This document shows positions 35,690 through 61,655 of a stretch of 64,000 bases of DNA, one piece after another (positions within the stretch are counted from its first letter, which is position 1; each line of letters begins with the position of its first letter). This stretch comes from Synechococcaceae cyanobacterium (GTDB lineage: Bacteria; Cyanobacteriota; Cyanobacteriia; PCC-6307; Cyanobiaceae), in contig CANCJV010000013.1 of assembly GCA_947378425.1 (NCBI GenBank), forward strand, positions 2,826 to 66,825, written 5' to 3'. The notes below the pieces were generated by a model. The model saw only the letters and a list, made by a program, of their open reading frames with translations. It ran no database searches and was not told the origin of the DNA. The position numbers and the translations under genes are program-made.

Positions 35690-35692
35690 ACC

Positions 35693-36601
35693 GTGACCAG
35701 CACCTCAGGTGCGGGGGCTTTGCCCCCCTCGGCGTTGCAGCCCTATGCCAACGCCCGCATCCTGCTCTTCTCCAATTCCATCCCTGGCGTGCTCGATTCC
35801 GAGCGCACCGGGCGCTTCCTGTTTGAGGGCTTCCTCAAGAGGCTGCGGGGGATCTCCAGCAAGGAGAACTCACCGGGCGTCGACACGGGGGACTTCACCT
35901 ACGAGGGCTACCTCACCCGCGGGGCGGTGCTGGCGCTGACCCCTTCCCAACCCTGGGACTGGCTGGGGACGGCCATCAGCTGGAGCACCACCGGCATCCG
36001 TCCGGTGTCTGGCACCACGCCTGTGTTGCTGGCGCCCTGCTTCGGGGCGGTGTGGCTCGGGCCTCTTACGGAGTTGCGCGCTCCCGGCCGGTTGCCGACC
36101 CCAAGCCGCGGGCAGCTGGCCGCCTTCTCAGTGACCGAGTTCGGCGGTCTCTATGGCGCCGGGGGCATTGGCTCGTTGACCCAGCCCCTGCTGGGCGAAC
36201 GCGTCCAGGCCGCCCTCAAGCCCAACCGGGTGGTGGTCGTAGCCAATGGCGAGAGCCTCAACCTTCTCGCCGAGCGACACCTCACCACGGTCACCACCTT
36301 GCGGGGCCTGAACCCCACCCTCACCGGCCGGCCCTCCGATCCACTGCCAGTGGGCAGCTGGCTGTTCATCCCCAAGCGCCGGGCCGCCGCAAACGCTGAC
36401 ACCAGCACCACCAGCCTGCCGGCTGGCTTCTACACGCCCGAAACCCTGGCCACCTATCTGGGCGTGTCGCTCTCGACCATCTACAGCTGGAACTCCAGCG
36501 GCTACGGGCCTCCCTTCGTGAAGCTGGGTAACCTAGTCCGTTACACCTACGAGGGCGTGGAGATCTGGCTGGCCAGGCAGCTGGAGCTCTCGCGGGGGTG
36601 A
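35693..36601 (+). CDS. Chimeric-looking protein: unknown N-domain + LysM-like motif + C-terminal excisionase-type HTH (HTH_17/AlpA-like)
   Basis: The LysM-like segment is GESLNLLAERHLTTVTTLRGLNPTL...PLPVGSWLFIP. The C-terminal 68 aa, FYTPETLATYLGVSLSTIYSWNSSGYGPPFVKLGNLVRYTYEGVEIWLA, form an excisionase-family HTH and coincide with repeat copy 1. Confidence 0.6.
   Translation: MTSTSGAGALPPSALQPYANARILLFSNSIPGVLDSERTGRFLFEGFLKRLRGISSKENSPGVDTGDFTYEGYLTRGAVLALTPSQPWDWLGTAISWSTTGIRPVSGTTPVLLAPCFGAVWLGPLTELRAPGRLPTPSRGQLAAFSVTEFGGLYGAGGIGSLTQPLLGERVQAALKPNRVVVVANGESLNLLAERHLTTVTTLRGLNPTLTGRPSDPLPVGSWLFIPKRRAAANADTSTTSLPAGFYTPETLATYLGVSLSTIYSWNSSGYGPPFVKLGNLVRYTYEGVEIWLARQLELSRG
36395..36601 (+). 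repeat. 207-bp direct repeat, copy 1 (HTH-coding)
   Basis: It aligns without gaps to 58862-59068. A hand count gives 21 mismatches in 207 nt. Only 2 of 68 codons change the amino acid. Confidence 0.9.
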
Positions 36602-36644
36602 GGGCTGAACTGTGCTGGCTGCAGGGGTAAGCCTGTCGATCGAA

Positions 36645-37190
36645 CTACAGCCAATGCAGGGGGTAGGGCATCGCCCCTGGGACCCAGCTGCTGAATCCCC
36701 AGGCCAGCACGACCATCAGCACAGATCCCGTGAGCACCGGGAACAGGAGGAAGGGCCAGGTCACGCCAAGAAACACCGTCAGAAACGCCATCCCTCCGGC
36801 GGGTGGATGCAGGCAGCGCAGCTGCTGACCCAACAAAATCGTGAGTCCAACAGCCAGAGCCAGCACCAGAGGCCCCTGGCCGAAAAGTGAGCCCAGCGCC
36901 ACTCCTAGAAAACCGCCGAGGGTGTTGCCCACGACGACATTGCGGGGCTGTGCCAGGGGGCTGCGCGGATAGCCAAAGAGCAGAACGGAAGAGGCGCCAA
37001 GTGGAGCCACGATCAACACATGACCACTCCAGGCTGAGAGCAGAGCCAGCAACCCCACTGCCATCAGACCGCCAAGGGAGGTCACTCCGATCTGGGAGAT
37101 CCGAAAGCGCGGCTGTATTCGACGCCCTCTGCGGCGTTCGCGCCGCTGAAGCACGGCGGCCCGCCTCACCAGCCTGCCGATGGAAGCCAT
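36645..37190 (-). CDS. HPP-family membrane protein (putative nitrite transporter)
   Basis: The internal ATG gives MASIGRLV... The product has 4-5 TM helices and the family signature CLHPPAGG. The 350-aa ORF extension is rejected. Confidence 0.75.
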
Positions 37191-37659
37191 GGCCTCCGGT
37201 GAATTCGCCCCTGCAGTCTGTAGGCGGCCCACTCTCGACGTGGACGGGCCAGTGGCCAGAGCCATGTATCGCCCGTTCCCTGTCCCCGCTTCTGCTACGG
37301 CGAAAGCCTGGTGGTCGAACCCGAACGGGGACTGGGCCTTCCCGCCAGTCTGTTTGTGGCGCCCCATCGGGCCTGGGAAGTTCCGAGGCCCCGGGCGCCC
37401 GCAGCCACCCCCGCTGGCGCGATCATGGCTTTGGCTTCTCGATGAGCTTTGCCATGGTCCGACACCTCCAGGTGCCCAGCGATGGTTGCGATCTGGCCGA
37501 TGGCACGATCCACATAGCGGTGAGTTCCGTCCGGGTGTCGGCGCCTGTATTGCCTCTGTGCATGGCCAGGCCATTCGCACGCCTGCTGAGCCATGGGGCT
37601 TTGGATGGCCTCCTCTACGCCATCCCATCAGCACCCCCTCTGACCCCCACGCCCCATCC

Positions 37660-38166
37660 ATGAGCCAAGCCTTGGACGGAACTCTCCCCAGCCTCACGCA
37701 CCTTGATTCGCGCGGTGACGTTCACATGGTCGATGTGAGCAGTCGGGCAGCCACGGTTCGCGAGGCCGTGGCCGAGGGCTGGCTGCGCATGCAGCCGGTT
37801 ACGCTGGCGTTGGTCCTGGAGGGTCAGGCGCCCAAGGGAGATGTGCTGGCGGTGGCCCGGGTGGCGGCAATCCAGGCTGCCAAGCGCACCGCTGAGCTGA
37901 TTCCCCTCTGCCATCCGCTGCCGCTTTCGGGGGTGAAGGCCACGATCGGGCCTGCGCTTGATGGGTCTGGGCTGCGTGTGGAGGTGCGGGTCCGCACCAC
38001 CGCCGCCACCGGCGTGGAGATGGAGGCGCTCACGGCCGTGAGTGTGGGCCTGCTCACGCTCTACGACATGGTAAAGGCCGCCGATCCCGCCATGACGATC
38101 GGGCCAATCCAGCTGCTGTCCAAGCAAGGCGGCCGCAATGGTGTCTGGCAGCGGCGAGATGGCTGA
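37660..38166 (+). CDS. moaC: Cyclic pyranopterin monophosphate synthase MoaC
   Basis: Motifs are [45 protein letters not shown] and [21 protein letters not shown]. Confidence 0.9.
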
Positions 38167-39406
38167 ACCCAGGGCTGAACCCTTTCCCGCCGAGGGATTG
38201 CCGCTGGAGGAGGCGCGGGCGCGGGTGTTGGCCGCGCTGCGGCCTCATCCGCCGATCGAGACCCTCCCCCTGGCGGCCTGCCTGGGCCGGGTGGTGGCGC
38301 AATCGGTGTTGGCCAGCGAAGCGGTGCCCGGATTCCGGGCCGCGATCCTCGATGGCTACGCCGTGGCCGATGCCACGCCACCGAAGCCCGGTCGCCGCTG
38401 GCGGGTGGTGGGACACTCCGCAGCCGGCGCTCCCTACCCGCAGCCCATTGGGGAGGGGGAGGCGGTGCGCATCCTCACCGGCGCCCCCTTGCCGGAGGGT
38501 GCCGCGCGGGTGTTAGCCCAGGAGCAGGTGGAGGTTCAGGGGACGTCGCTGCTCCTCACAGAGGCCGTGGGCCCGGAGCCCTGGATCCGTGCCGCCGATG
38601 AGGAGGCGGCGCCGGGGCAGTTGCTGTTGGAGGCCGGCCAGCGCCTCGGGCCCGCCGATCTGGGTCGGTTGGCGGGCTGTGGTGTGGCGATGCTGCCGGT
38701 GGCGACCCGCCCGCGGATTGGCCTGCTGATCACCGGCGATGAACTGGTGAGGCCCGGTGCCCGTCGCGGGCCCGGTGAGATCTGGGAAAGTAACGGCACC
38801 ATCCTTGAGGCTCTGTTAGCCCGTCTGGGCTACCCGCTGACCCTACGGTTGCAGGTGGCCGATCAGCCGGAGCGATTGGCGGCCGCCTTTGATCAGCTGG
38901 CTGCCGGTTGCGATCTGGTGGTGAGCACCGGTGGCGTTTCTGCCGGCGACAGCGACTGGATCCGCCCCCTGTTGGCCGAGCGGGGCACGGTGGCGTTCTG
39001 GAAGTTGTTCCTGCGGCCGGGACGCCCCTTTGCGTTCGGCTCCCTGGCCGGATTGCCTTTCTTCGGTCTGCCGGGTAATCCGGTGGCGGCCGCCATCACG
39101 GCCTTGCAGCTTGTGCTGCCGGCTCTGCAGGCGCTGGAAGGGGGCGATGCCGTGGGTCTGCGGCGGTTGCGGGTGAGGCTGGCGGCGCCCCTGAGGCGAC
39201 GGCCGGGGCGGCCGGAACTGGCCCGGGCCCGATTGGCATTCGCCGCTGACGGGCTGCCGCTGGCGTTGCTGGAGGGCAGCCAGGCGTCGTCCCGCATCGG
39301 TTCGCTGCAAGGGGCCGAGCTGCTGTTGGAGCTGCCCGCCGAGGCGGCCACGCTGGAGGCCGGTACCGAGCTCTGGGCCCAGCTGCTGCTGCTGCCCCTG
39401 TTCTGA
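38159..39406 (+). CDS. moeA: Molybdopterin molybdenumtransferase MoeA
   Basis: Patterns [11 protein letters not shown]...[10 protein letters not shown]...[13 protein letters not shown] and [10 protein letters not shown] are present. The ATG overlaps the moaC stop (ATGGCTGA). An alternative ATG lies at 38138. Confidence 0.88.
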
Positions 39407-39417
39407 TCCCCCTGTCT

Positions 39418-39927
39418 TCAAAGGGGCGTGTTGCCTTCCACCCAGGTGCCCACCCCGTTCACCCATTCCCGTTTCCAGAAGGGAACCTCGTGCTTGAGGC
39501 CTTCCAGCAGGGCCTGGCCGCACCGCTGGGCCGGGCCGCGGCGATCGGCCGCCACCGCCACCAGCACGATGACCTCGCCGGGTCGTAGCTGGCCGATCCG
39601 GTGGCGCACCAGCACTGCAGCGGTCCCCTGGGCCGTGACCATGGCCAGCTCCTGCAGGCGGCGTTCAGCCATGGCGGGGTAATGCTCCAGCTCCAGGGCC
39701 TCCAGCGGCAGGCCTAGGCCACTCACACCCCGCACCCTGCCGATGAAGTGGGCCTCAGCGGCAGGCATGCCACCGGGCAAGTCCGCCAGCTGCCTTTGCC
39801 AGGCGGCCAGGCAGGCGAGGGGATCAAGGGTGGCGGAGAGCAGCTGCAGATCCAGCCGGGGCTGCGCCGTTTCCACGGGTTCGCGCCGCTCAGCCTCCAC
39901 TGATCGGCGGCAGGAAGGCCAGTTCAT
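39418..39927 (-). CDS. moaE: Molybdopterin synthase catalytic subunit MoaE
   Basis: Motifs are FIGRVRG...LELEHYPAMAE...HRIGQLRPGE...PFWKRE. Confidence 0.88.
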   Translation of the reverse strand: MNWPSCRRSVEAERREPVETAQPRLDLQLLSATLDPLACLAAWQRQLADLPGGMPAAEAHFIGRVRGVSGLGLPLEALELEHYPAMAERRLQELAMVTAQGTAAVLVRHRIGQLRPGEVIVLVAVAADRRGPAQRCGQALLEGLKHEVPFWKREWVNGVGTWVEGNTPL

Positions 39928-40162
39928 CGTCGGGGTTGAGGGGCGTGTCGAAGCTGGCGAAGCTGTGGTTGATCGCCACCCGCACGGTGTGCGCTGGTGC
40001 TGGATCGGGCAGTTGGCTCCAGATCTGGTGCGGTGTGAGGCCGGCGCTGTGGGGCCAGGTTCGCTCCCCCCAGCCCGCCCGCTCCCGCAGTCCGGCGAAG
40101 AGCTTGACCCTCACCGTGGCCGCTGCCACGGCGTTGGATCCCCCGTCACCTGGCCCCCGCAT
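39890..40162 (-). CDS. moaD: Molybdopterin synthase sulfur carrier MoaD
   Basis: The product reads VRVKLFAGLRERAG...DELAFLPPISGG with a C-terminal Gly-Gly. The start is uncertain. Confidence 0.8.
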   Translation of the reverse strand: MRGPGDGGSNAVAAATVRVKLFAGLRERAGWGERTWPHSAGLTPHQIWSQLPDPAPAHTVRVAINHSFASFDTPLNPDDELAFLPPISGG

Positions 40163-40237
40163 CGTTTTGGTCTGGATCACTCCACCCACTCTGTCGCTAC
40201 CGCAGCCCCACAATGGGCCTTCCGCCGCTGGCCTGCT

Positions 40238-40753
40238 GTGGCCCTTTCGATCGCCCTGCTCACGGTGTCCGATCGGCGTAGCCTCGCCGACGATCCCTCC
40301 GGCGATGCCCTCCAGCAGCGCCTTGAGGCAGCGGGCCACCGGCTGCAGGAGCGTTGCCAGGTGCCCGATGACCGATACCGGATCCGAGCGGAGGTCAGTC
40401 GCTGGATCGCCGATCCGGCCGTGCAGGTGATGATCAGCAGTGGTGGTACTGGCTTAACCGGTCGTGATGGCACCCCGGAAGCGGTGGCTCCTTTGCTCGA
40501 CAAGACCATGGATGGCTTCGGGGAGCTCTTCCGGATGCTCTCCTTCCAGACCATCGGCACCAGCAGCCTCCAGAGCCGCTGCCTGGCGGGGGTGGCCAAT
40601 GGCACCCTCATTTTCGTGTTGCCCGGTTCTCTCGATGCGGTGTCCACGGCCTGGGATCGGTTGATTCGCGCCCAGCTGGACGCGGAGACCCTCCCCTGCA
40701 ATCTGGTGCAGCTGTTGCCTCGCTTGCGGGAAGATCCCGATCAGCTCGCCTGA
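40238..40753 (+). CDS. moaB: Molybdenum cofactor biosynthesis protein MoaB/Mog-type
   Basis: The GTG start gives (M)ALSIALLTVSDRRS...ISSGGTGLTGRDGTPEA...VLPGS. The long upstream ORF extension is rejected. Confidence 0.8.
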   Translation: MALSIALLTVSDRRSLADDPSGDALQQRLEAAGHRLQERCQVPDDRYRIRAEVSRWIADPAVQVMISSGGTGLTGRDGTPEAVAPLLDKTMDGFGELFRMLSFQTIGTSSLQSRCLAGVANGTLIFVLPGSLDAVSTAWDRLIRAQLDAETLPCNLVQLLPRLREDPDQLA

Positions 40754-40759
40754 GCGCCG

Positions 40760-41506
40760 ATGGAGACCTCAGCGCTGCTGCTTGCCCTGGCTGGGGTGGC
40801 CTTTCTCTATGCCTCCGTTGGCCATGCGGGGGCCTCCGGCTACATCGCGGTGCTTGCGCTGAGCGGTTTTGCCGCCGCAGAGATCCGACCCCTAGCGCTG
40901 GTCCTCAACGTGCTCGTGTCCAGCCTCGCCACCTGGAATTTCGCCGCCGCCGGCCACTTTCGGCGCGAGGTGTTTCTGCCGCTCGCCCTGTTCTCGATTC
41001 CTGCGGCGTTGGTGGGCGGCATGGTCTCCTTGCCCACCCAGCCGCTCCAACGCCTGCTTGGGCTGGTGCTGCTGTTCTCAGCCTGGCGGTTGTCGCAGCC
41101 TTCCCAACCCGGAGAGGTTTCTCTAGCCGTGCCAGGACCCATGACCATCAGCCTGACGGGGGGCCTCCTTGGCGGGCTGGCCGGCATCACCGGCACCGGT
41201 GGCGGCATCTTCCTGACGCCGCTGATGATCCTGCGGGGCTGGCTGGTGCCTCGCCAGGCGGCGGCCGTCTCGGCGGCATTCATCCTGGTCAATTCCCTGG
41301 CGGGGCTGGTCGGGTTGGTGATGGCCAGGGGGAGCGCCGCTCTGCCTGCGGCCGGAGTGGTGGGGCCCATGGCGTTGGCAGTGATGATGGCCGGAGGGCT
41401 GGGGGGCCATTGCGGCAGCCGCCGCTTTCCTTCCCTGTGGATTCGGCGCCTGCTGGCCGTGGTGCTGTTGGTGGCAAGCGGAAAGTTGCTGGGCTGGATG
41501 GGCTGA
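40760..41506 (+). CDS. TauE/SafE-family (DUF81) membrane transporter
   Basis: 248 aa with 7-8 TM helices. The N-terminal LLALAGVAFLYASVGHAGASGY and an internal repeat GGLLGGLAGITGTGGGIF fit the family. Confidence 0.7.
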   Translation: METSALLLALAGVAFLYASVGHAGASGYIAVLALSGFAAAEIRPLALVLNVLVSSLATWNFAAAGHFRREVFLPLALFSIPAALVGGMVSLPTQPLQRLLGLVLLFSAWRLSQPSQPGEVSLAVPGPMTISLTGGLLGGLAGITGTGGGIFLTPLMILRGWLVPRQAAAVSAAFILVNSLAGLVGLVMARGSAALPAAGVVGPMALAVMMAGGLGGHCGSRRFPSLWIRRLLAVVLLVASGKLLGWMG

Positions 41507-41569
41507 GGGCAGGCGACAGGAGTTGATCGCTGCTGCCTGAGCGAAGCACCGGCGCGATCGGCGCAGGCC

Positions 41570-42658
41570 TCAGCCGCCCAAGTAGGCCATCTCCGCATGG
41601 CGAGCCGCGGCGGCGGCTGGCGGGGCCGGCGCCGCTCCGGGCGTCCAGGCCGCCTGACGTTGTTCGCTCCAGCGGTCGTCCCGCTGCGCCCAGCGGGCTG
41701 CCAGCACCTGCCGCAGCGCCCCCGGCGGGGTGCTGAGCTCTAACCAAGGCCGTAGATCCAGGCCGCTGCCGGGGGCGGCGAACAGGCAGCTGTAGGCGAG
41801 GCCGTCGGCGGTCACCCGCAGGCGATTGCAGTCGCCGCAGAAGGGGGTGCTCACGGAAGCCACTACGGCTAGCAGGCCGCGGCCGTCGCGGTAGCGCCAG
41901 CGGATCGCCGTGCCGTGCGGATCGCGGCCCACGGGCTCCAGCGGCCAGCGTTCCGCGATCCGCTCCACCATCACGCCGGCGCTCAGCACCGCCTCCGGCC
42001 GCCAGCCGTTCCGATTGCCGACATCCATGTATTCGATCAGCCGCAGCTCCACCCCCCGCTGCCGCGCCAGGTCCGCCAGCGTCAGCAGCTGGTCGTCGTT
42101 GCGGCCGCGTTGGATCACGGCATTGAGCTTCAGCGCTCCCTTCCCCGGATCGAAGCCCGCATCCCGGGCGTAGTCGATCGCCGCCAACACCTTCGCCAGC
42201 AGATCGTCGCCGGCTGTCGTTCCGCCCGGGAGACCCGCCATCGCTGCCACGCTGGCCCCTGTGGCGCCATCGAGGCTCAGGGTGATCCGGTCCAGCCCGG
42301 CCTTGCGAAGGGATCGGGCCCGAGCGGCCGTGAGCAGGCTGCCGTTGCTGGTGAGGGCGATTTCAGCCAGGCCAGCGGCTCCGGTGGCCGCGGCCTGGCG
42401 CAGGGGCGCGGCGCCGCTGATCAGATCCTCAAGGCCGGGGTGAAGCAGGGGTTCGCCGCCGGTGAGGCGCAGGCTCCGGACCCCCAGCTCCACCGCGGCG
42501 CGCACCACTGAAAGGCGTTGAGACCGGTTCAGCAGCCCCGGCGGCTCGACCCCATCCGGCAGGCAGTAGGGGCAGGCCAGGTTGCAGCGGGCCGTGAGCG
42601 AGAGGCGCAGAACCCCCAGCGGGCGGCCGTGGCGGTCGAGGGGCAGGGGTGGCGCCAT
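41570..42658 (-). CDS. moaA: GTP 3',8-cyclase MoaA (radical SAM)
   Basis: It has the CNLACPYC radical-SAM cluster motif, LRLTGGEPLL and the C-terminal CGDCNRLRVTADG. Confidence 0.92.
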   Translation of the reverse strand: MAPPLPLDRHGRPLGVLRLSLTARCNLACPYCLPDGVEPPGLLNRSQRLSVVRAAVELGVRSLRLTGGEPLLHPGLEDLISGAAPLRQAAATGAAGLAEIALTSNGSLLTAARARSLRKAGLDRITLSLDGATGASVAAMAGLPGGTTAGDDLLAKVLAAIDYARDAGFDPGKGALKLNAVIQRGRNDDQLLTLADLARQRGVELRLIEYMDVGNRNGWRPEAVLSAGVMVERIAERWPLEPVGRDPHGTAIRWRYRDGRGLLAVVASVSTPFCGDCNRLRVTADGLAYSCLFAAPGSGLDLRPWLELSTPPGALRQVLAARWAQRDDRWSEQRQAAWTPGAAPAPPAAAAARHAEMAYLGG

Positions 42659-49892: not shown

Positions 49893-49893
49893 C

Positions 49894-50894: not shown

Positions 50895-52190
50895 TCATTT
50901 CAGAGCCTTGATCTTGAGGCTGTTGAGATAGGCCTGGGGATTGTTGGAGTCAAACTTGGTGCCGTCAAAGAACACCTCCAAACCACGGGAATCGCCGGCG
51001 GGACCAGTGCCGTAGCCATTGGCTTTGGCAGCGGCCCGCCAGAGGTCGCTGCGATTCACTTGATTCACCAGGGACTTGATGTTGGTTCCCTTCGGCAGAT
51101 AGCCCCAGCGGATGTCTTCGGTCACAAACCAGGTGTCATGGCTCTTGTAGGGGAAGGAAGCATTATCAGCCCAGAACTTCATCTTTAGGCCGGGGATATT
51201 CTCAACCTTGCCCGTGCCAAAATCGATTTTGCCCTGAAGCCGGGGCAGGAGATCATCCACGGTGGCCTTGACGTACTTGTCTTCAGAAAGGATCTTGGCC
51301 AGTTCATTGGTGTTGGCAGGGTTGTCGGCCCACTTCTGGGCTTGTTGCACGGCCATCAGCAGGCGCAGGGTGGCATTGGGGTTCTTCTTCACCCAGTCGG
51401 CGCGCATGGCGAAGGCCTTCTCAGGGTGATTCTTCCAGATCTGACCGGTGATCAGGACGCTATAGCCAAGCTTTTTATTGACCAGGCGCTCGTTCCAGGG
51501 CTCGCCAACAGCGAAGACATCCATGGTGCCCGACTTCATGTTGGCCACCATCTGCGGCGGCGGGATCACCACCAGGTCAGCCTTCTTGTTCGGGTCGACG
51601 CCATTGGCCGACAGCCAGTAGCGCATCCATAGGTCGTGGGTGCCGCCCGGGAAGGTCACAGCAGCCTTGAACTTATCTCCAGTTGCATTCTTGCGGTCGA
51701 CCGCCTTGGCGAGACCAGGCGCTTTGACACTGAACTTGTCCTTTAGAAAATCGTTGGAGGCTGAAATGCCCTGACCATTGAGGTTCAATCGCGCCAAGAT
51801 GAACATCGGCACGGGCTGCCTGCTCTTGGTGATCGCCCCGCTGGTCAGCAGATAGGGCATCGGTGACAGGATATGGGCACCATCGATGCCGCCGCGGGCA
51901 CCGCCCAGCTCCAGGTTGTCGCGGGTCACAGCCCAAGAGGTCTGCTTCTTGAGCTCCACTCCGGTCATGCCCTGCTTAACGAAGAAGCCCTTCTCCTTGG
52001 CGATGATCAGGGGGGCAGCATCGGTGAGGGCGATGAAGCCCAGCTCCACACTGGTGGTTTCGGGCTTGCCGGGGGCAGCCTGGGCGGGGCCGGCGCCCAG
52101 CAAGGTGGCGAGACTGCCGAACTGAACCACCGCACCGGTGGCGACGGCCAGGCCGGTGCGCAGGACTTGGCGGCGAGTGAAAGGGGTCAT
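50895..52190 (-). CDS. nrtA: Nitrate/nitrite ABC transporter substrate-binding protein NrtA
   Basis: It has a Tat-type signal (MTPFTRRQVLRTG) and a periplasmic-binding fold. It is the first gene of nrtABCD. Confidence 0.9.
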   Translation of the reverse strand: MTPFTRRQVLRTGLAVATGAVVQFGSLATLLGAGPAQAAPGKPETTSVELGFIALTDAAPLIIAKEKGFFVKQGMTGVELKKQTSWAVTRDNLELGGARGGIDGAHILSPMPYLLTSGAITKSRQPVPMFILARLNLNGQGISASNDFLKDKFSVKAPGLAKAVDRKNATGDKFKAAVTFPGGTHDLWMRYWLSANGVDPNKKADLVVIPPPQMVANMKSGTMDVFAVGEPWNERLVNKKLGYSVLITGQIWKNHPEKAFAMRADWVKKNPNATLRLLMAVQQAQKWADNPANTNELAKILSEDKYVKATVDDLLPRLQGKIDFGTGKVENIPGLKMKFWADNASFPYKSHDTWFVTEDIRWGYLPKGTNIKSLVNQVNRSDLWRAAAKANGYGTGPAGDSRGLEVFFDGTKFDSNNPQAYLNSLKIKALK

Positions 52191-52746
52191 GGGGTGATCA
52201 GGTAGCGGAAAGGGGCGACGATCGGCCGCCGGGACGGGAACTTAGAAGTGAATAGAGTTGCTGCCGGTCGGCAAAGCTGGAGGGTGCGGCCGGCTCCGTC
52301 GGTACAGAGCCGTCTCCAGGCGGGGGGTATCAGAGCCAGGAACCCAGTGATGGAAATCCTGGTAGGAACGACATCCCTGCAACCTCAGTCCATGGGTTTC
52401 GGATTAGAAACCTATTTCCAACCCCAAGGGGGAGGGAATAGGACCCGATGGTGGTCATCAGGATTGGTTGAATCCCGACGACTCCTGAACTGAACCGCCC
52501 GGTTTATCGCATTACCTTCCCTCAGCATCTTGGGGACAAGACACTGTTGAGTGGTCAGCAAAAACCTTGAAGGCAGTGCTAGTGGGGAGCTGGTGGATGG
52601 AGAGCGGCCGGCCAGCGACATCAGGGCTTCACAACAAAGAGCCCATGGCGAATGTTTTGATCGGCGCTAATGCTTGCCGATGCATCTACAAAATCATGCG
52701 TCCCCAGACCGCGTCCGTGGCTGTCGTTACAGAAACGCCCTCATTG

Positions 52747-53214
52747 TCAGATCTTCAGGCCAAATTCTTCCAGGGCCCTGGGCAGGTTGCGGTGCTCGTG
52801 GCCGGGATGGCAGAGCTTGACAAGAGCGAAACGTTCCAGTTCATCAAGTCGGCTCCATCGCTCTTCGTGGAGGGTGACTCCCAGCTGCCGACACGACTCC
52901 AGCAGGATGTCCGGGATGCATCCGCCCCGTAGCCAGGCCGCAGTGAGGAGGGGATCGATCGCTCGGGCCGGCCCCTGGGGCAGGTCGGCGCTGCGGGAAA
53001 GCAGCCACCGGCGCAACCCCTCCAGCTCGTCCGTGCTGTCGGGCCAGGCCAGCAGGTCGCGCCGTTCCGCCTCGCTCAGGCCATGCCAGTGCACCAACTT
53101 CAGCTTCACCCCCGCCAGATCGAGCTTGCGACGCACCGCCATCGGGATGCAGCGCAGATCGCCACTGAAGTCCGCCTCGAACGCGAAGATGCGCCGGTGT
53201 CGGTCGCCACTCAT
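52747..53214 (-). CDS. narM: Nitrate reductase-associated protein (NarM-type)
   Basis: 155 aa. The pattern FAFEADFSGDLRCIPMAVRRKLDLAGVKLKL..W..LS..ER is typical of the cyanobacterial nitrate-reductase-associated family. Confidence 0.7.
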   Translation of the reverse strand: MSGDRHRRIFAFEADFSGDLRCIPMAVRRKLDLAGVKLKLVHWHGLSEAERRDLLAWPDSTDELEGLRRWLLSRSADLPQGPARAIDPLLTAAWLRGGCIPDILLESCRQLGVTLHEERWSRLDELERFALVKLCHPGHEHRNLPRALEEFGLKI

Positions 53215-54293
53215 GGCGCCAGCTCCTGACGCAGCCGTTCGCCGCAGCGCGCCTGCAGCAGGGCCCGGGCCTGATCCAGGCCTGCCGGCAGACTGCTGAA
53301 ACGCCCTGCCAGCCAGAGGTAGGCTCCCAGATTCCAGAGTAGGGCTTCCGCCAGGGGACCTTCACCGCGAAGCGCTGCCAGGCCCTCGCTTTGCCAGGTC
53401 TCCAGGTTGGTCCAGGCCTGCTCGGGGGAGTTGATGCCATGGTCGCGAGGGTGCAGCAGGATCCGCTCCACGCTCCCGTCACGAACCCGTGCTGTGATTC
53501 CCGCCCGCGTGGTGGGCAGATCGGTGGAGCCCTCCAGTCCCTTCACCGTGAGCAGATTGGTTTCACCGGCTGCCGTCAGGGCCTCCCAGGCGCGGGTTTC
53601 CGTGGGGGGATGCACAAAGCCACTGACCAGGAGATGCTCGCCGCGATGCGGTGTCCAGAGCAGTTCGAGGCTGGCTACCGGGGGCCGTTTGCCGATCGCG
53701 TCCCGAATCGCGACCAGCCGCTCAGCGCCAGGGAAGTGATCGGGTTGGTGGGTGAGGGCCAGACCATGCCGATCGAGGCGTGCCTGCACGGTGGCCAGGG
53801 GCAGGCCGCACCATTCGATGCCCAGGCTGCGGAACAGCTCCGCCAGGGTCACCCCGTATTTCACAGGCATCGGAGCGCCACCGTGCAGCACCACCGGCAG
53901 CCCGGCGGCGGCCAAGCTGAGGGCAAGCAGGGGCAGCAGGGGGGCGGTGCGGCTGCGGCCGTCGTAGGGCACGCCGAAGCAGAGGGGCGCTGGACCGCAG
54001 CTGGTGAGGCTTGGTCCATGGTCTCGATAGCTCTCCAGCATGCCGGTGAGCTCCAGGGGGGCCGGACGGCGGATGCGGTGGGCAATCAGAAAAGCCCCGA
54101 TCTGGGCCTCGTCAACCTGACCTGTGAGCATCAGGTCGATGGCGGTGCGGGCTTCTTCGCGGCTCAGGCCGGTGCTGGTGTGTTCACCGCTGCCTACCTT
54201 GCCGATCAGCTCGCGGAACAGCGCCCGCTCCGGACCGAGGGCCCGAAGTTGGGCGGCCCGGCGCTCCTCCCCGGCCGCTGGCAGCGATGCCAT
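53211..54293 (-). CDS. Anthranilate phosphoribosyltransferase-like (glycosyl transferase family 3) protein
   Basis: The internal ATG gives MASLPAAGEE... It has a TrpD-like N-terminal helical domain (LSREEARTAIDLMLTGQVDEAQIGAFLIAHRIR) and the segment GKRPPVASLELL. The ORF extension to 54578 is rejected. Confidence 0.7.
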   Translation of the reverse strand: MASLPAAGEERRAAQLRALGPERALFRELIGKVGSGEHTSTGLSREEARTAIDLMLTGQVDEAQIGAFLIAHRIRRPAPLELTGMLESYRDHGPSLTSCGPAPLCFGVPYDGRSRTAPLLPLLALSLAAAGLPVVLHGGAPMPVKYGVTLAELFRSLGIEWCGLPLATVQARLDRHGLALTHQPDHFPGAERLVAIRDAIGKRPPVASLELLWTPHRGEHLLVSGFVHPPTETRAWEALTAAGETNLLTVKGLEGSTDLPTTRAGITARVRDGSVERILLHPRDHGINSPEQAWTNLETWQSEGLAALRGEGPLAEALLWNLGAYLWLAGRFSSLPAGLDQARALLQARCGERLRQELAP

Positions 54294-54705
54294 CTCTGGA
54301 TTTGGTGGCGATTGCAACAGGTCGCAACGGGGTCGACGTGGTGACATTGTCGCCGAGAGCTTGACGGCCAGAACCAGTCGACCCCATTTCCCTGAACCCA
54401 TCGGCCGATCGCTTCTGATCTGCTTGCTGTTTCGGTTCGGGTCTGTTGGGCATCTGAGTGATGCTGAATCGTGCTGTTTTCCATAGCCACGGAAGCATCG
54501 ACTGCAGTTTATGGCTGCACGATGTTTGCCGATATCTTTCTGGCATTTCGATCTTGCTATCCCGAAGCTTTTGTGCACGGACTTTTCTTCCTCCGGCGCT
54601 CATCTGCTCTGTCGCTCCGATTTTTCATCCCTTCTTGGTAGCCCAGCCAGCGCAGGCCTCCCAGGTTCAGGCCCCTGGCGTTATCCACTCGTCCCCGATC
54701 TGCCC

Positions 54706-56274
54706 ATGTCCGCTTCGGCTACCCCTTCCCCGGCCGCGCCCCTTCCCCGTCTTGAGGAGGCCAAGGCTAGTTTCAGCGGGCTTGATCTCGCGCCCCGACT
54801 GGAACAGTTGGGGCGCGACGGCTGGGAGTCTCTCGATGAAATGACCCTCACCGTGCACCTCAAGTGGCTGGGGATCTTCTTCCGGCCGGTCACGCCGGGA
54901 CGCTTCATGGTGCGGCTGCGGCTGCCCAATGGAGCCATCCAGGCTAAGCAGTTGGCAGTGCTCGCTGAGTTGGTCGATCGTTGTGGAGAGCACGGCAGCG
55001 CCGATATCACCACTCGCCAGAACCTCCAGCTCCGGGGTCTGCTCCTGGAGGACATGCCCCCCCTGATGGAGGCTCTGGAGCGGCTTGGGCTGACCAGCCG
55101 ACAGTCGGGTCACGACAACCCACGCAACATCACCGGTAACCCCCTGGCCGGTCTTGATCCTGAGGAATGGGTCGATACACGGCCGATCGTGCAGGCCATC
55201 CAGATCGCCTTGCTGGGCCCTGGCGGCCCCCGCAACCTGCCCCGCAAATTCAATGTCGCCGTCGGTGGCGCCCCCGACAGCTTTCTGCTCCACAACGACC
55301 TCGCCTTTCTGCCCGCCCTGCGGGACGGCGAGCTGGGCTTCACGGTGATGGTGGGCGGCTTCTTTTCGGGGCAGCGCAACGAGCTGGCAATTCCGCTGGG
55401 GCTGTGGCTGCGGGCTGAGCAGCTCCCTGGTTTCAGCCTGGCGGTGCTGCGCCACTTCGAGCGCCATGGCAATCGCAGGCAACGCACCAAGAGCCGTTTG
55501 ATGTATTTGATCGATCAGCTCGGGCTCGAGGGCTATCGGGCGGCGGTTCTCGACACCTGGCGCGAGCTGGTGGGGCAGGCCGCCGTAGCCCTGCCCCACA
55601 ACGGCGCTCACTTGGTGAACCGGGCGCCGCGGGATTGCCTGGGTGTGCAGCGACAGAAGCAGGCAGGCCTGCACTGGCTGGGGTTGCACGTGCCGATGGG
55701 GCGGCTTGATGCGGCGACGATGCTGGAGCTGGCCCGCCTGGCCCGCAGCTACGGCAGCGGCGAGCTGCGGCTCACCGAGGCTCAGAACGCCCTGATCGTC
55801 AATGTGCCAGCCGATCGGGTTGAGGCATTGCTGGCAGAACCCCTCCTGCAGCTCTACCGCCCCGATCCATCACCCCTGCAGGCCGAGGCGGTGAGCTGCA
55901 CCGGCAACGCCTACTGCAGCTTCGCCCTGATCCCCACCAAGGCCACGGCCCAGGCTGTGCTGGAGGAACTGGAGCGCCGGCTCGAGCTTCCCCATGCCGT
56001 GCGCATGCACTGGACCGGCTGCCCCAATGCCTGCGGCCAGCCCTACATGGGCCAGATCGGCCTGATGGGTGCCAAGGCCCGCATCGATGGCGCAACGGTG
56101 GAAGCCGTCAAGATCTTCCTGGGGGGCACCATGGACGCTGAACCGAAGCTGGCCGAGCTGCATGACAAGGGCGTGCCGCTCAGCGATCTGCCCGATGTGC
56201 TGGAAGCGTTGTTGATCGACAACTTCGGTGCCCGTCGGCGATCGGCCGCTGCTCCTCTGTCAGTGCCATCGTGA
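54706..56274 (+). CDS. nirA: Ferredoxin-nitrite reductase
   Basis: It has NIR_SIR ferredoxin-like repeats (LKWLGIFFRP..GRFMVRLRLPNG) and the siroheme/4Fe-4S Cys cluster CTGNAYC...CPNAC. The start is MSASATPS. Confidence 0.93.
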   Translation: MSASATPSPAAPLPRLEEAKASFSGLDLAPRLEQLGRDGWESLDEMTLTVHLKWLGIFFRPVTPGRFMVRLRLPNGAIQAKQLAVLAELVDRCGEHGSADITTRQNLQLRGLLLEDMPPLMEALERLGLTSRQSGHDNPRNITGNPLAGLDPEEWVDTRPIVQAIQIALLGPGGPRNLPRKFNVAVGGAPDSFLLHNDLAFLPALRDGELGFTVMVGGFFSGQRNELAIPLGLWLRAEQLPGFSLAVLRHFERHGNRRQRTKSRLMYLIDQLGLEGYRAAVLDTWRELVGQAAVALPHNGAHLVNRAPRDCLGVQRQKQAGLHWLGLHVPMGRLDAATMLELARLARSYGSGELRLTEAQNALIVNVPADRVEALLAEPLLQLYRPDPSPLQAEAVSCTGNAYCSFALIPTKATAQAVLEELERRLELPHAVRMHWTGCPNACGQPYMGQIGLMGAKARIDGATVEAVKIFLGGTMDAEPKLAELHDKGVPLSDLPDVLEALLIDNFGARRRSAAAPLSVPS

Positions 56275-57602
56275 TGGCGACACGGCTGAGCTGTGCCAAC
56301 TCGCGCCACCCCGCCGTGCAAGCCCCCCTCGACCCCGCCGACCTGCCTTCGCCGGCTAGCGAGGATCGTTGGGAGTGGTTGCAACGGTTGCGCGCCGGCG
56401 TCTTTCCCCTAGAGCCCTGGCTGGTCGCGATCGAGGCTGGTGGTGTGCCACCCGAGTCCGATCTGATCGCCGTTTTGGCTGACCGCCTCGATGGTGCCGC
56501 CACGGTGCGGTTGCTGCGATGGTGGCTGGCCCAGCCCCTGCGGGACCCGGCCTTTCCCCAGGGCATCGCACGGCATCGTGATCCTGTGGTAGCCACGGCC
56601 CTGCGCCAGGCCCTCGGCGACCATTGCGCCACCGAAGTTCAGGTGGCGCTGTTGCCCCTGCTCGGGCACCAGCGCCAATCCCTTGATTTCGGCCTGTTGC
56701 AACGCCGGGCCCTGGAGCCGGCACCACGGCAGCAGCGTTGTGCCGCCCTGGAGGGCCTGGGGCTTGGATTGAGCGTCTGGCCCCTGGGGGCCTTGCGCTC
56801 CACCTTGATCCAGCTCACCACGGACCTGGATCCCGCTCTGGCCGCCGCCGCGGTAGATAGCCTGGCCCGACTTCCCGATGGCCGCTCCAGTTTGCTGGCG
56901 GTGCGTTCTCGAGCACTGGAGCCAGCCGTGACGGCGCGGCTGGAGCGTCGTCTGCGGAGTCTGCCGATCCGTCCACTCCTGTTGCTGGTGCACGGGCGAG
57001 CCCAGGGGGAGATTCCGGCTGAGATCCGAAGCCTGGCCGCCGAGCTGCGGGAGCGGCGTGGTGCTCCGGTGCTGTTGCGGGCCCTGACGGATCCGCAGCC
57101 CGCAGAACTCCCAACCCTTGAGCACCCCCTGGCTCTGGTGCCGCTGTTGCTGCTGCCGGGTGAACACGTGCGCCACGACCTGCCCCGTCTGCGCCTCGAA
57201 ATTCGGCCCAGTAGCGGTCTAAAGGTGTTGCCGTTTCTAGGCAGCTGGCCCGTCTGGCAGCGTGCCCTGGCGGGTGAGCTGAGTCGTCAGGTGGCCGATC
57301 GGCCATCGCCGCCATCGAGCCCCCCCCTGCTGCTGCACCATCCCATCGCTTCTCCCTTGGGACGTCGTTATCTCCGCCTTCTCGCCGCCATCACGGGCGC
57401 CACACCCCTGGAGGCTCCGTACAGTTCGGATCGAATCGAGGCCAGCCTCCTGGGGCATCAAGGTCCCGTTCTGCCGCTGGCTTTGGCGGCCAACCGGCTC
57501 ACCGAGGTACTCACCCCCCGCTTCGGAGAGGCGGCGGCCCCGCTGCTCAGCCGTCCGGCCCTGCGCCAGGTTCTATTGGAGCAGCTGGAGGCCTTGCCAT
57601 GA
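56271..57602 (+). CDS. CbiX/SirB-like chelatase domain protein with an N-terminal helical-repeat domain (putative sirohydrochlorin ferrochelatase)
   Basis: The C-terminal half reads LLLLVHGRAQGE...PLLLLPGEHVRHDLP (CbiX pattern). It lies between nirA and cobA. Confidence 0.55.
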   Translation: MMATRLSCANSRHPAVQAPLDPADLPSPASEDRWEWLQRLRAGVFPLEPWLVAIEAGGVPPESDLIAVLADRLDGAATVRLLRWWLAQPLRDPAFPQGIARHRDPVVATALRQALGDHCATEVQVALLPLLGHQRQSLDFGLLQRRALEPAPRQQRCAALEGLGLGLSVWPLGALRSTLIQLTTDLDPALAAAAVDSLARLPDGRSSLLAVRSRALEPAVTARLERRLRSLPIRPLLLLVHGRAQGEIPAEIRSLAAELRERRGAPVLLRALTDPQPAELPTLEHPLALVPLLLLPGEHVRHDLPRLRLEIRPSSGLKVLPFLGSWPVWQRALAGELSRQVADRPSPPSSPPLLLHHPIASPLGRRYLRLLAAITGATPLEAPYSSDRIEASLLGHQGPVLPLALAANRLTEVLTPRFGEAAAPLLSRPALRQVLLEQLEALP

Positions 57603-58432
57603 CCCTCCCGGCACCCAGCGGTAGCGAATCTCCCGCCCCGGAGCGGACCGGCCTTTCCTCCCCCGGCACCGTCTACCTGGTGGGCGCCGGCCCCGGCGAT
57701 CCCGAGTTGCTCACCCTCAAGGCCCATCGCCTCCTGCGGGGTTGCGATGCCCTCGTGCACGACTCCCTGGTGCCGAAGGCCCTGCTCGATCTGGTGCCCG
57801 AGCACTGTGAGCAGCATTTTGTGGGCAAGCGCCGCGGCCACCATTCGGTGCCCCAGCCCAGCACCAATGCCCTACTGGTGGAGCTGGCGGGGCGCCACCG
57901 CACGGTGGTGCGGCTCAAGGGTGGTGATCCTTTCCTGTTTGGCCGCGGCGGCGAGGAGGCGGCTCACCTGGCCCGCCAGGGCATCCCGGTGGAGGTGGTT
58001 CCGGGCGTCACCGCCGGTCTCGCCGCCCCTGCCTACGCGGGCATTCCGGTGACCCACCGCCGCGCCGGATCCTCGGTGACGTTCGTGACCGGCCATGAGG
58101 AGATTGATAAGGGCCGCCCCGGTGTGGATTGGCGTGGTCTGGCCCGCAGCAGCGATGGGCTGGTGATCTACATGGGTCTCCACAACCTGCGCCGCATCGG
58201 CGAGGAACTGGTGGCCGGTGGTCTCGATCCCGCCACTCCGGCGGCGGTGATCCAGCAGGGCACGGTGAGGGGCCAGCGGCTGCTGCTGGCCAGCCTGGGG
58301 GAGCTGGCCGATCAGGTGGAAGCCCAGGGGTTCGCCTCGCCTTCGATCGTGGTGGTGGGGGAAGTGGTGGCCCAGCGGGTGGAGGCCTGTGCGCCGGAGC
58401 CGGCCGACGCCGAGCTCCCGATTCCGTTCTGA
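57599..58432 (+). CDS. cobA: Uroporphyrinogen-III C-methyltransferase (siroheme branch)
   Basis: Motifs are VYLVGAGPGDPELLTLKA, RLKGGDPFLFGRGGEE and VPGVTA. Confidence 0.92.
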   Translation: MTLPAPSGSESPAPERTGLSSPGTVYLVGAGPGDPELLTLKAHRLLRGCDALVHDSLVPKALLDLVPEHCEQHFVGKRRGHHSVPQPSTNALLVELAGRHRTVVRLKGGDPFLFGRGGEEAAHLARQGIPVEVVPGVTAGLAAPAYAGIPVTHRRAGSSVTFVTGHEEIDKGRPGVDWRGLARSSDGLVIYMGLHNLRRIGEELVAGGLDPATPAAVIQQGTVRGQRLLLASLGELADQVEAQGFASPSIVVVGEVVAQRVEACAPEPADAELPIPF

Positions 58433-58440
58433 ACGGCCGC

Positions 58441-58512
58441 CAGCCTTCACCCCAGCCGCTTCACTGCAGCCTTCACCCCAGCCGCTTCATTCCAGCGGTC
58501 TCATTCCAGCCG
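58441..58512 (+). repeat. Tandem 26-bp repeat (2 copies plus a degenerate tail) just downstream of cobA
   Basis: The units are cagccttcaccccagccgcttcactg and cagccttcaccccagccgcttcattc, followed by a duplicated tcattccagc. Confidence 0.8.
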
Positions 58513-58780
58513 CAAGGTCCCGCCGGTGCGCTCCCGGCGCTTCTGGACGAGGGCGGCATAGCGGGCCAGGTCAATACTCCGAGTTGCCACTGCCTTCGCC
58601 ACGACTGGATTGAGCCCCGAACTGCTGGAACCACCGCTGGCAGAGTCGCTGCTGATGGACTGCAACAGGTGGGTGACCCCTGGTTGAGGCGGATGAAGGG
58701 CAAGGAGAAGCATTTTTCGACGGGCGACATTGCCAGCGGATTGGCCGGCAGACCGTGGCCCCCTGCGCAATGCGCAGAGA

Positions 58781-59068
58781 ATGGTGACCGCCTTCACCAC
58801 GCTGGTGGGGGCCGCAGGCTGTGATGCCCTGGGTATCGACCGGATATGCACAGCCCTCGATGCCGACACCAGTACCACCAGCCTGCCGGCCGGTTTCTAC
58901 ACGCCGGAAACCCTGGCCACCTACTTGGGGGTCTCCACCTCCACGATCTACAGCTGGAACTCCAGCGGCTACGGCCCGCCCTTCGTGAAGCTGGGCAACC
59001 TGGTCCGCTACACCTACGAGGACGTGGAGATCTGGCTGGCCAGGCAGTTGGAGCTCTCGCGGGGGTGA
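58781..59068 (+). CDS. Excisionase-family HTH (HTH_17/AlpA-like) protein, second copy
   Basis: The C-terminal 68 aa are 66/68 identical to the C-terminus of the 35693-36601 product. The ATG lies at 58781; the ORF track TTG is at 58730. Confidence 0.6.
   Translation: MVTAFTTLVGAAGCDALGIDRICTALDADTSTTSLPAGFYTPETLATYLGVSTSTIYSWNSSGYGPPFVKLGNLVRYTYEDVEIWLARQLELSRG
58862..59068 (+). repeat. 207-bp direct repeat, copy 2 (HTH-coding)
   Basis: See copy 1 at 36395-36601. Confidence 0.9.
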
Positions 59069-61650: not shown

Positions 61651-61655
61651 TCACC

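Follow-up and report, generated by a model that had tools for sequence, protein, structure and literature searches.

The window, a 64-kb stretch of DNA from a Synechococcaceae cyanobacterium, probably holds an integrated, temperate-siphovirus-like element that starts near 15.8 kb, runs past the end of the window at 64 kb and carries a nitrate-assimilation pathway at a fixed cargo position (probability roughly 0.7). Of the readings offered by the initial annotation, the one in which an entire nitrate pathway is the cargo of a phage-like integrative element agrees best with the data and is largely supported: related elements are contiguous at the site where the window holds the cluster. The insert, 22,467 bp long and with a complete set of Moco, cyanase, nitrate and nitrite assimilation genes, immediately follows the LysM-HTH gene in the head module.

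The host element and its cargo positions

On the left the element probably starts with a putative tyrosine integrase gene (15780-17054, minus strand), where the GC content steps from about 50% to about 65%. The integrase assignment is weak, with a phrog_1 match at E = 4.7e-5, a Pfam Phage_integrase match at E = 0.074 that covers the C-terminal catalytic part only, and no sequence match found in the PDB. It is followed by an early/replication module (17832-28440) predicted from Pfam and PHROG to encode a Bro-N/Ant anti-repressor (17832-18782, minus), a RecT-like annealing protein (19361-20710, minus), an SNF2/DEAD helicase with an intein (23210-25498, minus) and a primase (25765-28440, plus; phrog_35358, E = 5.5e-132). 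The packaging genes on the plus strand, namely a putative TerS named from its position only (29056-29604), TerL (29604-31298; Terminase_6C) and a sigma-70 region-2 protein (31308-31958; Sigma70_r2), are conserved in the same order at over 25 related loci.

Between the sigma and portal genes there is a first variable cargo slot of lower GC content (32009-33312, minus; GC 0.557), with ABM-domain and FRG-domain genes (Pfam ABM, FRG) in the window and RexA or an acetyltransferase in relatives; across 29 loci the gap measures 0.75 to 5.1 kb. The portal gene (33555-35174, plus; DUF4055; phrog_145, E = 3.6e-32) and a conserved 172-aa head-module gene with homologues in relatives (35171-35689, plus) form a segment whose homologues in many Cyanobium/Synechococcus genomes and MAGs are 85-94% identical. 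Next is the LysM-HTH gene (35693-36601, plus; Pfam LysM and HTH_17), for which intact homologues of 299-302 aa were found at 43 genome loci.

To the right of the insert, the remainder of the slot holds a low-GC orphan ORF of 228 aa (59255-59941, plus; GC 0.517), with no convincing Pfam or PHROG family match and no homologue in any of the related loci. The head module resumes with the scaffold gene (60095-61108, plus; phrog_206, E = 2.6e-16), conserved small genes colinear with relatives (61144-63392, some on the minus strand) and, from 63911 to the window end at 64000, the first part of the major capsid gene (plus), whose first 30 aa are 93% identical to an SU10_MCP-family gene of locus L001. 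This resumed part (60095-64000) is 91-95% identical to, and colinear with, loci L006, L007 and L004. The right end of the element, its tail genes and its att sites lie beyond the window.

The claim that the cluster sits between the two halves of a phage-like module was borne out by 46 related Cyanobium/Synechococcus loci, in which the LysM-HTH and scaffold genes are adjacent (median gap about 265 bp, maximum 6,363 bp); the distance in the window is 23.5 kb. The window and L006 are colinear on either side of the insertion, and both flanks match the same relatives (L006, L007, L004), contiguous there, at 87-94% identity. This comparison supports the view that both flanks belong to a single phage-like morphogenesis module and that the nitrate cluster is an insertion into it. 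Other cargo was found at the same slots in relatives, including RexA, acetyltransferase, PIN/DUF433, cupin, DoxX and cobW genes. The element family is common in freshwater Cyanobium/Synechococcus, often with several diverged copies per genome, as in Cyanobium Cruz-8D1, where six copies share 86-90% identity.

The nitrate insert and its junctions

The first part of the insert (36645-43572) contains genes for an HPP membrane protein (minus) and for molybdenum-cofactor synthesis and related functions, assigned by Pfam as MoaC (+), MoeA (+), MoaE (-), MoaD/ThiS (-), MoaB-like (+), TauE (+), MoaA (-) and MobA-like (-); these coordinates are those of maximal ORFs, and the true starts may therefore lie further in. 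The second part (43547-58432, mixed strands, Pfam) contains the cyanate, nitrate and nitrite assimilation genes: cynS, narB, a Crp-family regulator (-), nrtD/C/B/A (-), narM (-), a conserved 317-aa gene, nirA, a 443-aa weakly CbiX-like gene and cobA. The gene list proposed for the intervening pathway is thus confirmed by Pfam, with one exception, the CbiX-like gene, whose match is weak (E = 0.0016). No recombinase gene was found in the insert by Pfam.

Between cobA and the right-hand repeat copy is a spacer (58433-58861, plus) with a 26-bp tandem repeat at 58441-58492. A 95-aa ORF (58781-59068) has its N-terminal extension in the final 81 nt of the spacer. The spacer is conserved and colinear with cobA and an HTH fragment in contigs L136-L140 at 80-90% identity, and homology to it was absent from every other element locus compared. 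The metagenome contig L047 has the identical gene order from narB to cobA, followed by a GGDEF-EAL gene. Relatives of HPP and cobA elsewhere have non-phage neighbours, and the cluster is chromosomal there; no close relative of NarB, NirA or CobA was found in the phage collection or in IMG/VR records.

The left junction recurs in the isolate genome L038, where the LysM-HTH gene runs into the 3' end of HPP, beyond which an HPP-to-scaffold deletion follows. The right junction recurs in two distinct metagenome sequences represented by five contigs from several samples (L136-L140), in which cobA, the spacer and the HTH fragment are colinear with the window at 90% identity and the homology stops at the HTH stop codon. 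These contigs are at most 3 kb long, the element past the HTH segment is visible in them only through 26 bp in L136, and both junctions are present on one molecule in this window only.

That two related elements or remnants flank a native nitrate locus, or that the assembly is chimeric at a repeated element, is very improbable. Similar nitrate clusters are chromosomal elsewhere, and this multicopy family does break assemblies, since many of its loci stop at contig ends. However, the reading of two elements around a native locus is rejected by the contiguous match of both flanks to the same relatives, and an assembly chimera is excluded by the occurrence of the left junction in L038 and of the right junction in L136-L140; repeats of 90% identity would also not be collapsed by an assembler.

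The repeat copies and the route of entry

The insert is bracketed by the longest direct repeat within the window, and its description in the initial annotation was confirmed by alignment and by Pfam and PHROG. Copy A (36395-36601, plus), the last 207 nt of the LysM-HTH gene, and copy B (58862-59068, plus), the displaced resident 3' end of such a gene, align without gaps with 21 mismatches in 207 nt (89.9% identity) and amino-acid differences in 2 of 68 codons (L26T, G54D), and each ends in a TGA stop. Both match HTH_17 (E = 5.7e-8 and 3.6e-10, respectively) and the excisionase/regulator family phrog_66, while the 150 nt on either side of the copies are unrelated (25-30% identity). The longest identical run between A and B is 29 bp.

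The two copies have different nearest lineages. Copy A shares 96.1% identity with L038 and 95.2% with L011, against just 90% with L007 and L004, the lineage of the element surrounding it, and the switch of lineage along the LysM-HTH gene occurs at about 36386, at the left edge of the repeat. Copy B shares 96.6% identity with the LysM-HTH genes of L007 and L020, the lineage to which both flanks belong, and its protein sequence equals that of L008. Copy A would be an HTH-coding 3' end that was brought by the insert: the first base of the insert coincides with the start of the final, HTH-coding 207 nt of a LysM-HTH gene from another lineage of the same family, so that the reading frame of the resident gene is restored and its own 3' end pushed 22.5 kb downstream. 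These affinities are drawn from 207 nt in a family that is highly mosaic, and gene conversion could mimic or blur them; copy A is 96% identical to L038, yet the adjacent HPP is just 81-83% identical.

It had been proposed that purifying selection has kept both copies since a duplication. This was not supported in that form, because the A/B identity of 89.9% equals the mean among functional copies of different elements (89.8%), so that the synonymous-only pattern reflects lineage divergence predating the joining. The separate lineage affinities of A and B also counter the proposal, as does the decay of displaced copies elsewhere: the displaced HTH copies of other lineages, P0158 and P0159, which are homologues of copy B, carry 3 and 5 conserved-residue changes, compared with 0-2 in 42 functional copies.

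With regard to entry, an element of the same family most probably acquired the cluster a single time from a nitrate locus on a chromosome, through one illegitimate join that fused the spacer downstream of cobA to the first base of the HTH segment. The module of HTH segment, cluster and spacer would then have been inherited, and element copies would have exchanged it through the well-conserved HTH segment, by homologous recombination or gene conversion. This exchange could take place between co-resident copies, between sister chromosomes or following transfer.

Site-specific integration of a 22.5-kb cassette, with an attachment site at the start of the HTH segment, a surrogate 3' end, repeats acting as attL/attR and a recombinase supplied in trans, e.g., by the element's own integrase, is considered unlikely. 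It predicts the observed topology, in which the left side has the restored gene and the right side the displaced native 3' end; the weak integrase candidate could be counted in its favor, and the right-junction breakpoint at nt 1 recurs in L136 and in L137-L140, which are two more sequence lineages. However, this shared breakpoint is accompanied by the 80-90% identical spacer and so suggests a single inherited event, not repeated integration. Moreover, the insert encodes no recombinase, there is no perfectly conserved core at the repeat edge (identical runs of 2, 8 and 17 nt), and cargo is flanked by a second HTH copy in 0 of 46 other loci. An illegitimate join with subsequent homologous exchange is favored over site-specific integration because other HTH fragments in the family break elsewhere, at nt 18 and nt 52.

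Campbell-type entry, in which a circle with one HTH copy and the nitrate cluster recombined into the resident HTH, is topologically compatible but not required, and it appears comparably doubtful. Over its full length A resembles one lineage and B the recipient lineage. The B-type copies also differ in their nearest lineages (window, 96.6% to L007; L136, 92.3% to L015; L137, 92.4% to L032), while the 81 nt upstream of them are 84-90% alike among the three, as expected if the module entered, or was converted by, different recipients; these discordant affinities are equally explained by gene conversion. The crossover would have to be confined to the first few bases of the 207-nt homology, with no homology leftward. 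The circle could have come from A/B recombination in a donor element, but the origin is then left unexplained, because the donor must already hold the two-copy structure.

Comparison with known systems and consequences

Multicopy lambdoid prophages, e.g., those of enterohaemorrhagic E. coli, have moron or exchangeable-cargo loci, and they share with the window family diverged co-resident copies, fixed positions with unrelated cargo and frequent recombination between copies. Lambdoid cargo usually comprises one to a few genes (such as toxins or effectors) located by tail or lysis genes, whereas the window has a 22-gene pathway in the head module. In islands and phages that target tRNA genes with a surrogate 3' end, the direct repeat likewise consists of a restored and a displaced 3' end, but the window insert has no recombinase, no fixed core and a repeat that is 10% diverged. 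The closest cultured relatives of the portal and TerL are those of the cyanosiphoviruses P-SS2, S-CBS2 and S-CRES1-3, which also have about 10-13 kb in TerL-portal, as judged from match coordinates; these phages are distant from the window family (portal 30-32% and TerL 34-37% amino-acid identity) and are isolated lytic or potentially temperate viruses without nitrate genes.

The closest precedent is provided by the tycheposons of Prochlorococcus, mobile integrative elements that carry complete nitrate-assimilation clusters (Hackl et al., bioRxiv 10.1101/2020.12.28.424599), and the novelty previously ascribed to a complete, phage-bracketed and repeat-flanked nitrate set was overstated. Both systems are picocyanobacterial, of mobile integrative type, with the complete cluster as plug-in cargo, and both occur in several copies per genome with gain, loss and duplication of cargo. 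Tycheposons, however, integrate next to tRNA genes, while no tRNA gene was found in the window, and they combine a recombinase module with one for replication and have no more than one terS or capsid gene, unlike the full packaging/head module of the window element (TerL, portal, scaffold, capsid), which has the cargo inside it.

One point against the main reading is that 22.5 kb of additional DNA may be more than can be packaged. The pathway would be tied to a potentially mobile element and could be lost through deletion, as in L038; recombination between A and B could also excise or delete it, inefficiently, because the longest identical run is so short. Since the element is common and often multicopy in freshwater picocyanobacteria, a whole nutrient pathway may travel as cargo of such phage-like elements.

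Gene content of the element and of its nitrate-assimilation insert

The left portion of the phage-like element (~15.8-36.6 kb) contains genes encoding a weak integrase candidate, Bro/Ant anti-repressor, RecT-like protein, an intein helicase, primase, putative TerS, TerL (Terminase_6C) and a sigma-70 region-2 protein, followed by a small slot of lower GC for cargo (ABM and FRG genes on the minus strand), the portal gene (DUF4055 and phrog_145), a 172-aa conserved gene and the LysM-HTH gene (35693-36601). The integrase candidate gave weak matches (phrog_1, E = 4.7e-5; Pfam Phage_integrase, E = 0.074) and a PDB sequence search returned nothing. The head module resumes at 60.1-64.0 kb with the scaffold gene (phrog_206), small conserved genes and the start of the major capsid gene; the 30 N-terminal residues of the capsid protein that lie in the window (63911-64000) are 93% identical to the SU10_MCP-family gene of a related locus (L001). 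A plasmid origin was rejected, the portal having no match in the plasmid collection.

Between these two portions, the insert encodes HPP, moaC, moeA, moaE, moaD, moaB-like, tauE, moaA, mobA and cynS, followed by narB, a Crp-family regulator, nrtDCBA, narM, a conserved 317-aa gene, nirA, a weakly CbiX-like gene and cobA. Intact open reading frames were found for NirA, NrtA/B/C/D, NarB and NarM (Pfam NIR_SIR, NMT1_2, BPD_transp_1, ABC_tran, Molybdopterin, Nitr_red_assoc), and the Moco biosynthesis set moaA, moaC, moaD, moaE, moeA and mobA is all present. Judged by gene content, the insert is predicted to be a complete cyanobacterial assimilatory nitrate-reduction cluster with its Moco genes. Direct repeats at 47063-47730 and 49198-49835 (75-80%) correspond to the paralogous ATPase domains of nrtD and nrtC and are not a mobile feature.

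Some side features were also observed. A defence island of low GC (46-56%) occupies 1-15 kb, adjacent to the element, and encodes hsdM, two tandem hsdS and hsdR (type I restriction-modification), YgjP-like peptidase, Mrr and an HNH nuclease; the tandem hsdS pair has in common an exact 37-nt repeat and an 88-nt repeat at 84% identity, which could permit specificity shuffling. The SNF2/DEAD-type helicase (23210-25498, minus strand) carries an intein (Pfam Intein_splicing, PT-HINT) between its ResIII and Helicase_C domains.

Junctions of the insert and contiguity of the flanks in related genomes

The inserted segment of 22,467 bp opens with a foreign 3' end that codes for an HTH (copy A, 36395-36601) and closes with cobA and a 430-bp spacer, directly upstream of the resident HTH-coding 3' end (copy B, 58862-59068). 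In the simplest description of this sequence, the LysM-HTH reading frame is completed by copy A, and copy B is its displaced original end. Just 3' of cobA, the spacer contains two tandem 26-bp units that are 92% identical (58441-58492).

The left junction was found again in the element locus of Synechococcus sp. BA-132 (L038), which is colinear with 33592-36791, an alignment that crosses the HTH stop codon and enters HPP at its 3' end. Beyond this point L038 has a 1.3-kb insert, after which HPP resumes to the position of window 37220 and the alignment then jumps to the scaffold gene at window 60155; L038 is thus a deletion derivative of a window-like arrangement. The 1.3-kb insertion within the HPP remnant (L038 8194-9496) encodes two unannotatable ORFs (246 and 106 aa) and may be a small mobile element. 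The right junction was traced by searching proteins with the copy-B ORF, which retrieved the 94-95-aa proteins P0158 and P0159, which have the same 27-residue N-terminal extension. Their contigs (L136 and L137-L140) represent two distinct sequences from several metagenomes and are colinear with window 56143-59068 or 57813-59068 at ~90% identity, with homology stopping at the HTH stop codon; in L136, the 26 bp beyond the HTH stop correspond to what follows LysM-HTH in other elements. Since both junctions recur elsewhere, an assembly chimera is excluded for each of them. The arrangement is older than about 7-10% sequence divergence, and the observation stands on firmer ground than the initial annotation could have known.

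The left junction was absent from the HPP relatives L127, L128, L143, L144 and the contig of P0134, all of which have non-phage neighbours. Past the HPP stop codon, close relatives (85-92% amino-acid identity) have non-phage genes encoding a peroxidase, an Xre-RES pair with PstS, or HupE/UreJ. A metagenome scan with CobA found the same gene order only in L047, where narB-nrtDCBA-x-nirA-x-cobA is followed by a GGDEF-EAL gene. These non-phage neighbours of the HPP relatives and L047 indicate that location inside a phage-like element is the derived state of the cluster. The window and the L136-L140 lineages have this placement, and L038 retains a remnant of it.

Portal homologues at 85-94% identity were found in many freshwater Cyanobium/Synechococcus genomes and MAGs, and the element family was sampled by a genome scan with the LysM-HTH protein, which gave 43 loci, and by IMG/VR, which added 7 contigs carrying the element, virion or cell in origin. 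Among the 46 loci showing both genes, the LysM-HTH stop codon and the scaffold gene are separated by a median of ~265 bp and by 6,363 bp at most, compared to 23.5 kb in the window. The related locus L006 matches the window colinearly up to 36601 (87% identity) and again from 60169 to the end of the window (92-94%), with only ~240 bp of L006 separating the two blocks. The flanks are thus two portions of one phage-like element, as had been proposed, and because they are contiguous in relatives, the alternative that two related elements flank a native nitrate locus is ruled out. Across the 43 genome loci and 7 IMG/VR loci, no second HTH copy and no nitrate genes were found apart from the HPP remnants of L038, and the two flanks of copy B (58433-58861 and 59069-60094) had no homology to any of the element loci. 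The interval between copy B and the scaffold gene also contains an orphan ORF (59255-59941, 228 aa, GC 0.52) with no homologue in related loci and a sub-threshold match to a capsid C-terminal domain (E = 0.0085).

In the relatives, unrelated cargo occupies the same positions. The slot between sigma and portal contains RexA or an acetyltransferase, and the slot after LysM-HTH contains a PIN/DUF433 pair and cupin, with DoxX and a cobW/metallophosphoesterase/ABC-3 set further on. In L003 (11395-15839), the slot after DoxX encodes two cobW, metallophosphoesterase, hydrolase and an ABC-3 transporter gene, a zinc-limitation-type set, so the element family may be prone to taking up large nutrient-related cargo. 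The 6.3-kb slot of L017 carries mostly unannotatable cargo and one AraC-like gene.

The element is also multicopy. Six distinct copies with 86-90% nucleotide identity are present in Cyanobium sp. Cruz-8D1 (L018, L020, L023, L024, L025, L034) and five in the Lac Pavin MAG_64_39 (L013, L014, L016, L019, L028). Many copies stop at contig ends, and the family probably fragments assemblies. Genome records with a Cyanobium-type element (L022, L035, L031, L037, L026) bear the titles Bradyrhizobium ivorense, Chitinophaga pinensis, Pseudanabaena sp. and Microcystis elabens FACHB-917, and these are probably mislabelled or contaminated bins or cultures.

Divergence of the HTH copies and possible routes of insertion

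Re-alignment of 36395-36601 with 58862-59068 confirmed the gapless 207-nt direct repeat as first described, with 21 mismatches (89.9% identity), amino-acid differences at 2 of 68 codons (L26T and G54D) and TGA closing each copy. Both copies encode an HTH_17 domain (excisionase/MerR-like type) and the pair is the longest direct repeat in the window, while the 150 nt flanking each copy on either side are unrelated (25-30% identity).

The nearest lineages of the two copies differ. In the LysM-HTH 3' end, copy B matches L007 and L020 at 96.6% identity and L008 and L004 at 95-96%, and its amino-acid sequence equals that of L008; these four loci are among the closest relatives of both flanks. Copy A is closest to L038 (96.1%) and L011 (95.2%), with ~90% identity to L007, L020, L008 and L004. 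Within the LysM-HTH gene of the window, the nearest relatives are L007/L004 until ~36386 and L038/L011 thereafter, the switch lying at the left edge of the repeat. The mean pairwise identity of the HTH segments of the family (42 distinct functional segments) is 89.8%, so copies A and B at 89.9% are as unlike as two random family members. With this degree of divergence and with different nearest lineages, an in-situ tandem duplication followed by divergence was rejected, and the suggestion that purifying selection had kept both copies since their duplication lost its support. Differences that are mostly synonymous are what would be expected of functional alleles from different lineages.

Displaced copies decay, since L136 and L137 have 3 and 5 changes at positions where at least 95% of the family keep one residue, including W to C and G to C, compared to 0-2 in functional copies. 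Copy B of the window has none, which suggests a recent displacement or conversion. Each of the three B-type copies is nearest to another functional lineage, yet the upstream spacer is common to all three; the discordant affinities and the common spacer point to ongoing homologous exchange, or gene conversion, by way of the HTH segment.

Two other loci contain rearranged joins. In L141 (2574-2917), a scaffold 5' fragment runs directly into HTH nt 18-207, with a PIN gene next, and this join resembles the junction that a tandem duplication or a circle of the slot cassette HTH-PIN-DUF433-cupin-scaffold5' would give. In L142 (388-2325), the HTH fragment begins at nt 52, and the scaffold 5' fragment of the same cassette is joined to an internal TerL piece. 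From their sequences, these joins look like products of illegitimate recombination and not of the use of a fixed att core.

If the insert were a site-specific integrative cassette, copies A and B would be its attL and attR. This is less likely, since Pfam scans of the main ORFs at 36.6-58.4 kb found no recombinase in the insert, and the breaks at nt 18 (L141) and nt 52 (L142) do not define a fixed crossover. The breakpoint at nt 1 is shared together with homologous flanks, which points to one event, and the identical runs at the repeat edge (2, 8 and 17 nt) provide no identical core. Instead, we infer that the ancestral spacer-HTH junction would have arisen by one illegitimate join, for example through unequal exchange between two element copies or sister chromosomes, and that the left side would reflect ordinary continuity or a homologous crossover within LysM-HTH. 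The module would then have been spread or maintained by homologous recombination among many co-resident and related copies. The mechanistic reading of the initial annotation needs correction. The entry of a circular DNA by Campbell-type recombination, one of the readings first offered, may account for the latest step.

Recombination between copies A and B, expected earlier to delete or circularise the pathway, could do so. It is not frequent, because the longest identical runs are short (29, 25 and 20 nt), the sole loss seen, in L038, took another route, and the structure with two copies was kept in three lineages.

Relation to cyanophages and tycheposons and biological meaning

Among cultured phages, the nearest are the cyanosiphoviruses P-SS2, S-CBS2 and S-CRES1-3, the amino-acid identity of TerL and portal being only 30-37%. 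The window element has the large terminase, portal, scaffold and major capsid genes expected of a tailed-phage prophage (Caudoviricetes, P-SS2/S-CBS2-like cyanosiphovirus group); any tail and lysis genes, the right end of the element and its att site would lie beyond the right edge of the window. In structure it is like the moron or exchangeable-cargo loci known from multicopy lambdoid prophages, with a pathway of roughly 22 genes as the cargo. Searches of the phage collection and IMG/VR with NarB, NirA and CobA gave no close relative; the matches were distant, none was from a cyanophage, and most were host-like records or unannotated fragments. No paper was found in the literature on this element family or on a nitrate cluster in a Cyanobium prophage, and prophages have been described as rare in cluster-5 picocyanobacteria (PMC6157547).

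A complete nitrate-assimilation cluster that is gained, lost and duplicated is carried by a tycheposon of Prochlorococcus MIT0604 (Hackl et al., bioRxiv 10.1101/2020.12.28.424599). Tycheposons are mobile elements of picocyanobacteria and, like the window element, carry nutrient-assimilation cargo, and they are the nearest functional precedent, so that the novelty first claimed for a mobile complete nitrate set has to be tempered. However, tycheposons integrate beside a tRNA with partial tRNA repeats, whereas no tRNA or tmRNA was found within the 64-kb window, the right end of the element lying outside it. In contrast to a tycheposon, the carrier in the window has a full packaging and head module, with the cargo within the morphogenesis block. 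Nutrient-pathway cargo on a picocyanobacterial mobile element is already known, and the phage-like carrier with its cargo in the head-gene block seems to be a new vehicle for it.

With 22.5 kb of extra DNA, the element could be either an active phage or a defective resident. The most far-reaching reading is a family of multicopy temperate cyanosiphovirus-like elements of freshwater picocyanobacteria that carry whole nutrient pathways in fixed slots (nitrate assimilation in the window, cobW/zinc-limitation genes in L003), in which the nitrate-bearing element is still packaged or mobilised, nitrate use passes from cell to cell as a phage cargo and the HTH segment acts as a homology handle for hopping of the cargo module between co-resident copies. 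This is considered unlikely, with a probability of roughly 0.2; if the element is packaged or mobilised, it would amount to lysogenic conversion for a nitrogen source.

Nitrate use varies between picocyanobacterial strains, and the gain and loss of this trait is a long-standing question. For nitrate use in MIT0604 the answer is a tycheposon, and the window provides a second, structurally different carrier in freshwater Cyanobium/Synechococcus, in which a complete pathway of ~22 genes is located in the head-gene block of an element family conserved across many species, with up to six diverged copies per genome. If the elements are active, no larger metabolic cargo would so far have been linked to a cyanophage-like vehicle, and they would offer a testable route for the transfer of nitrogen-use traits; if they are defective, they would still be a recombination hot spot shaping the flexible genome.
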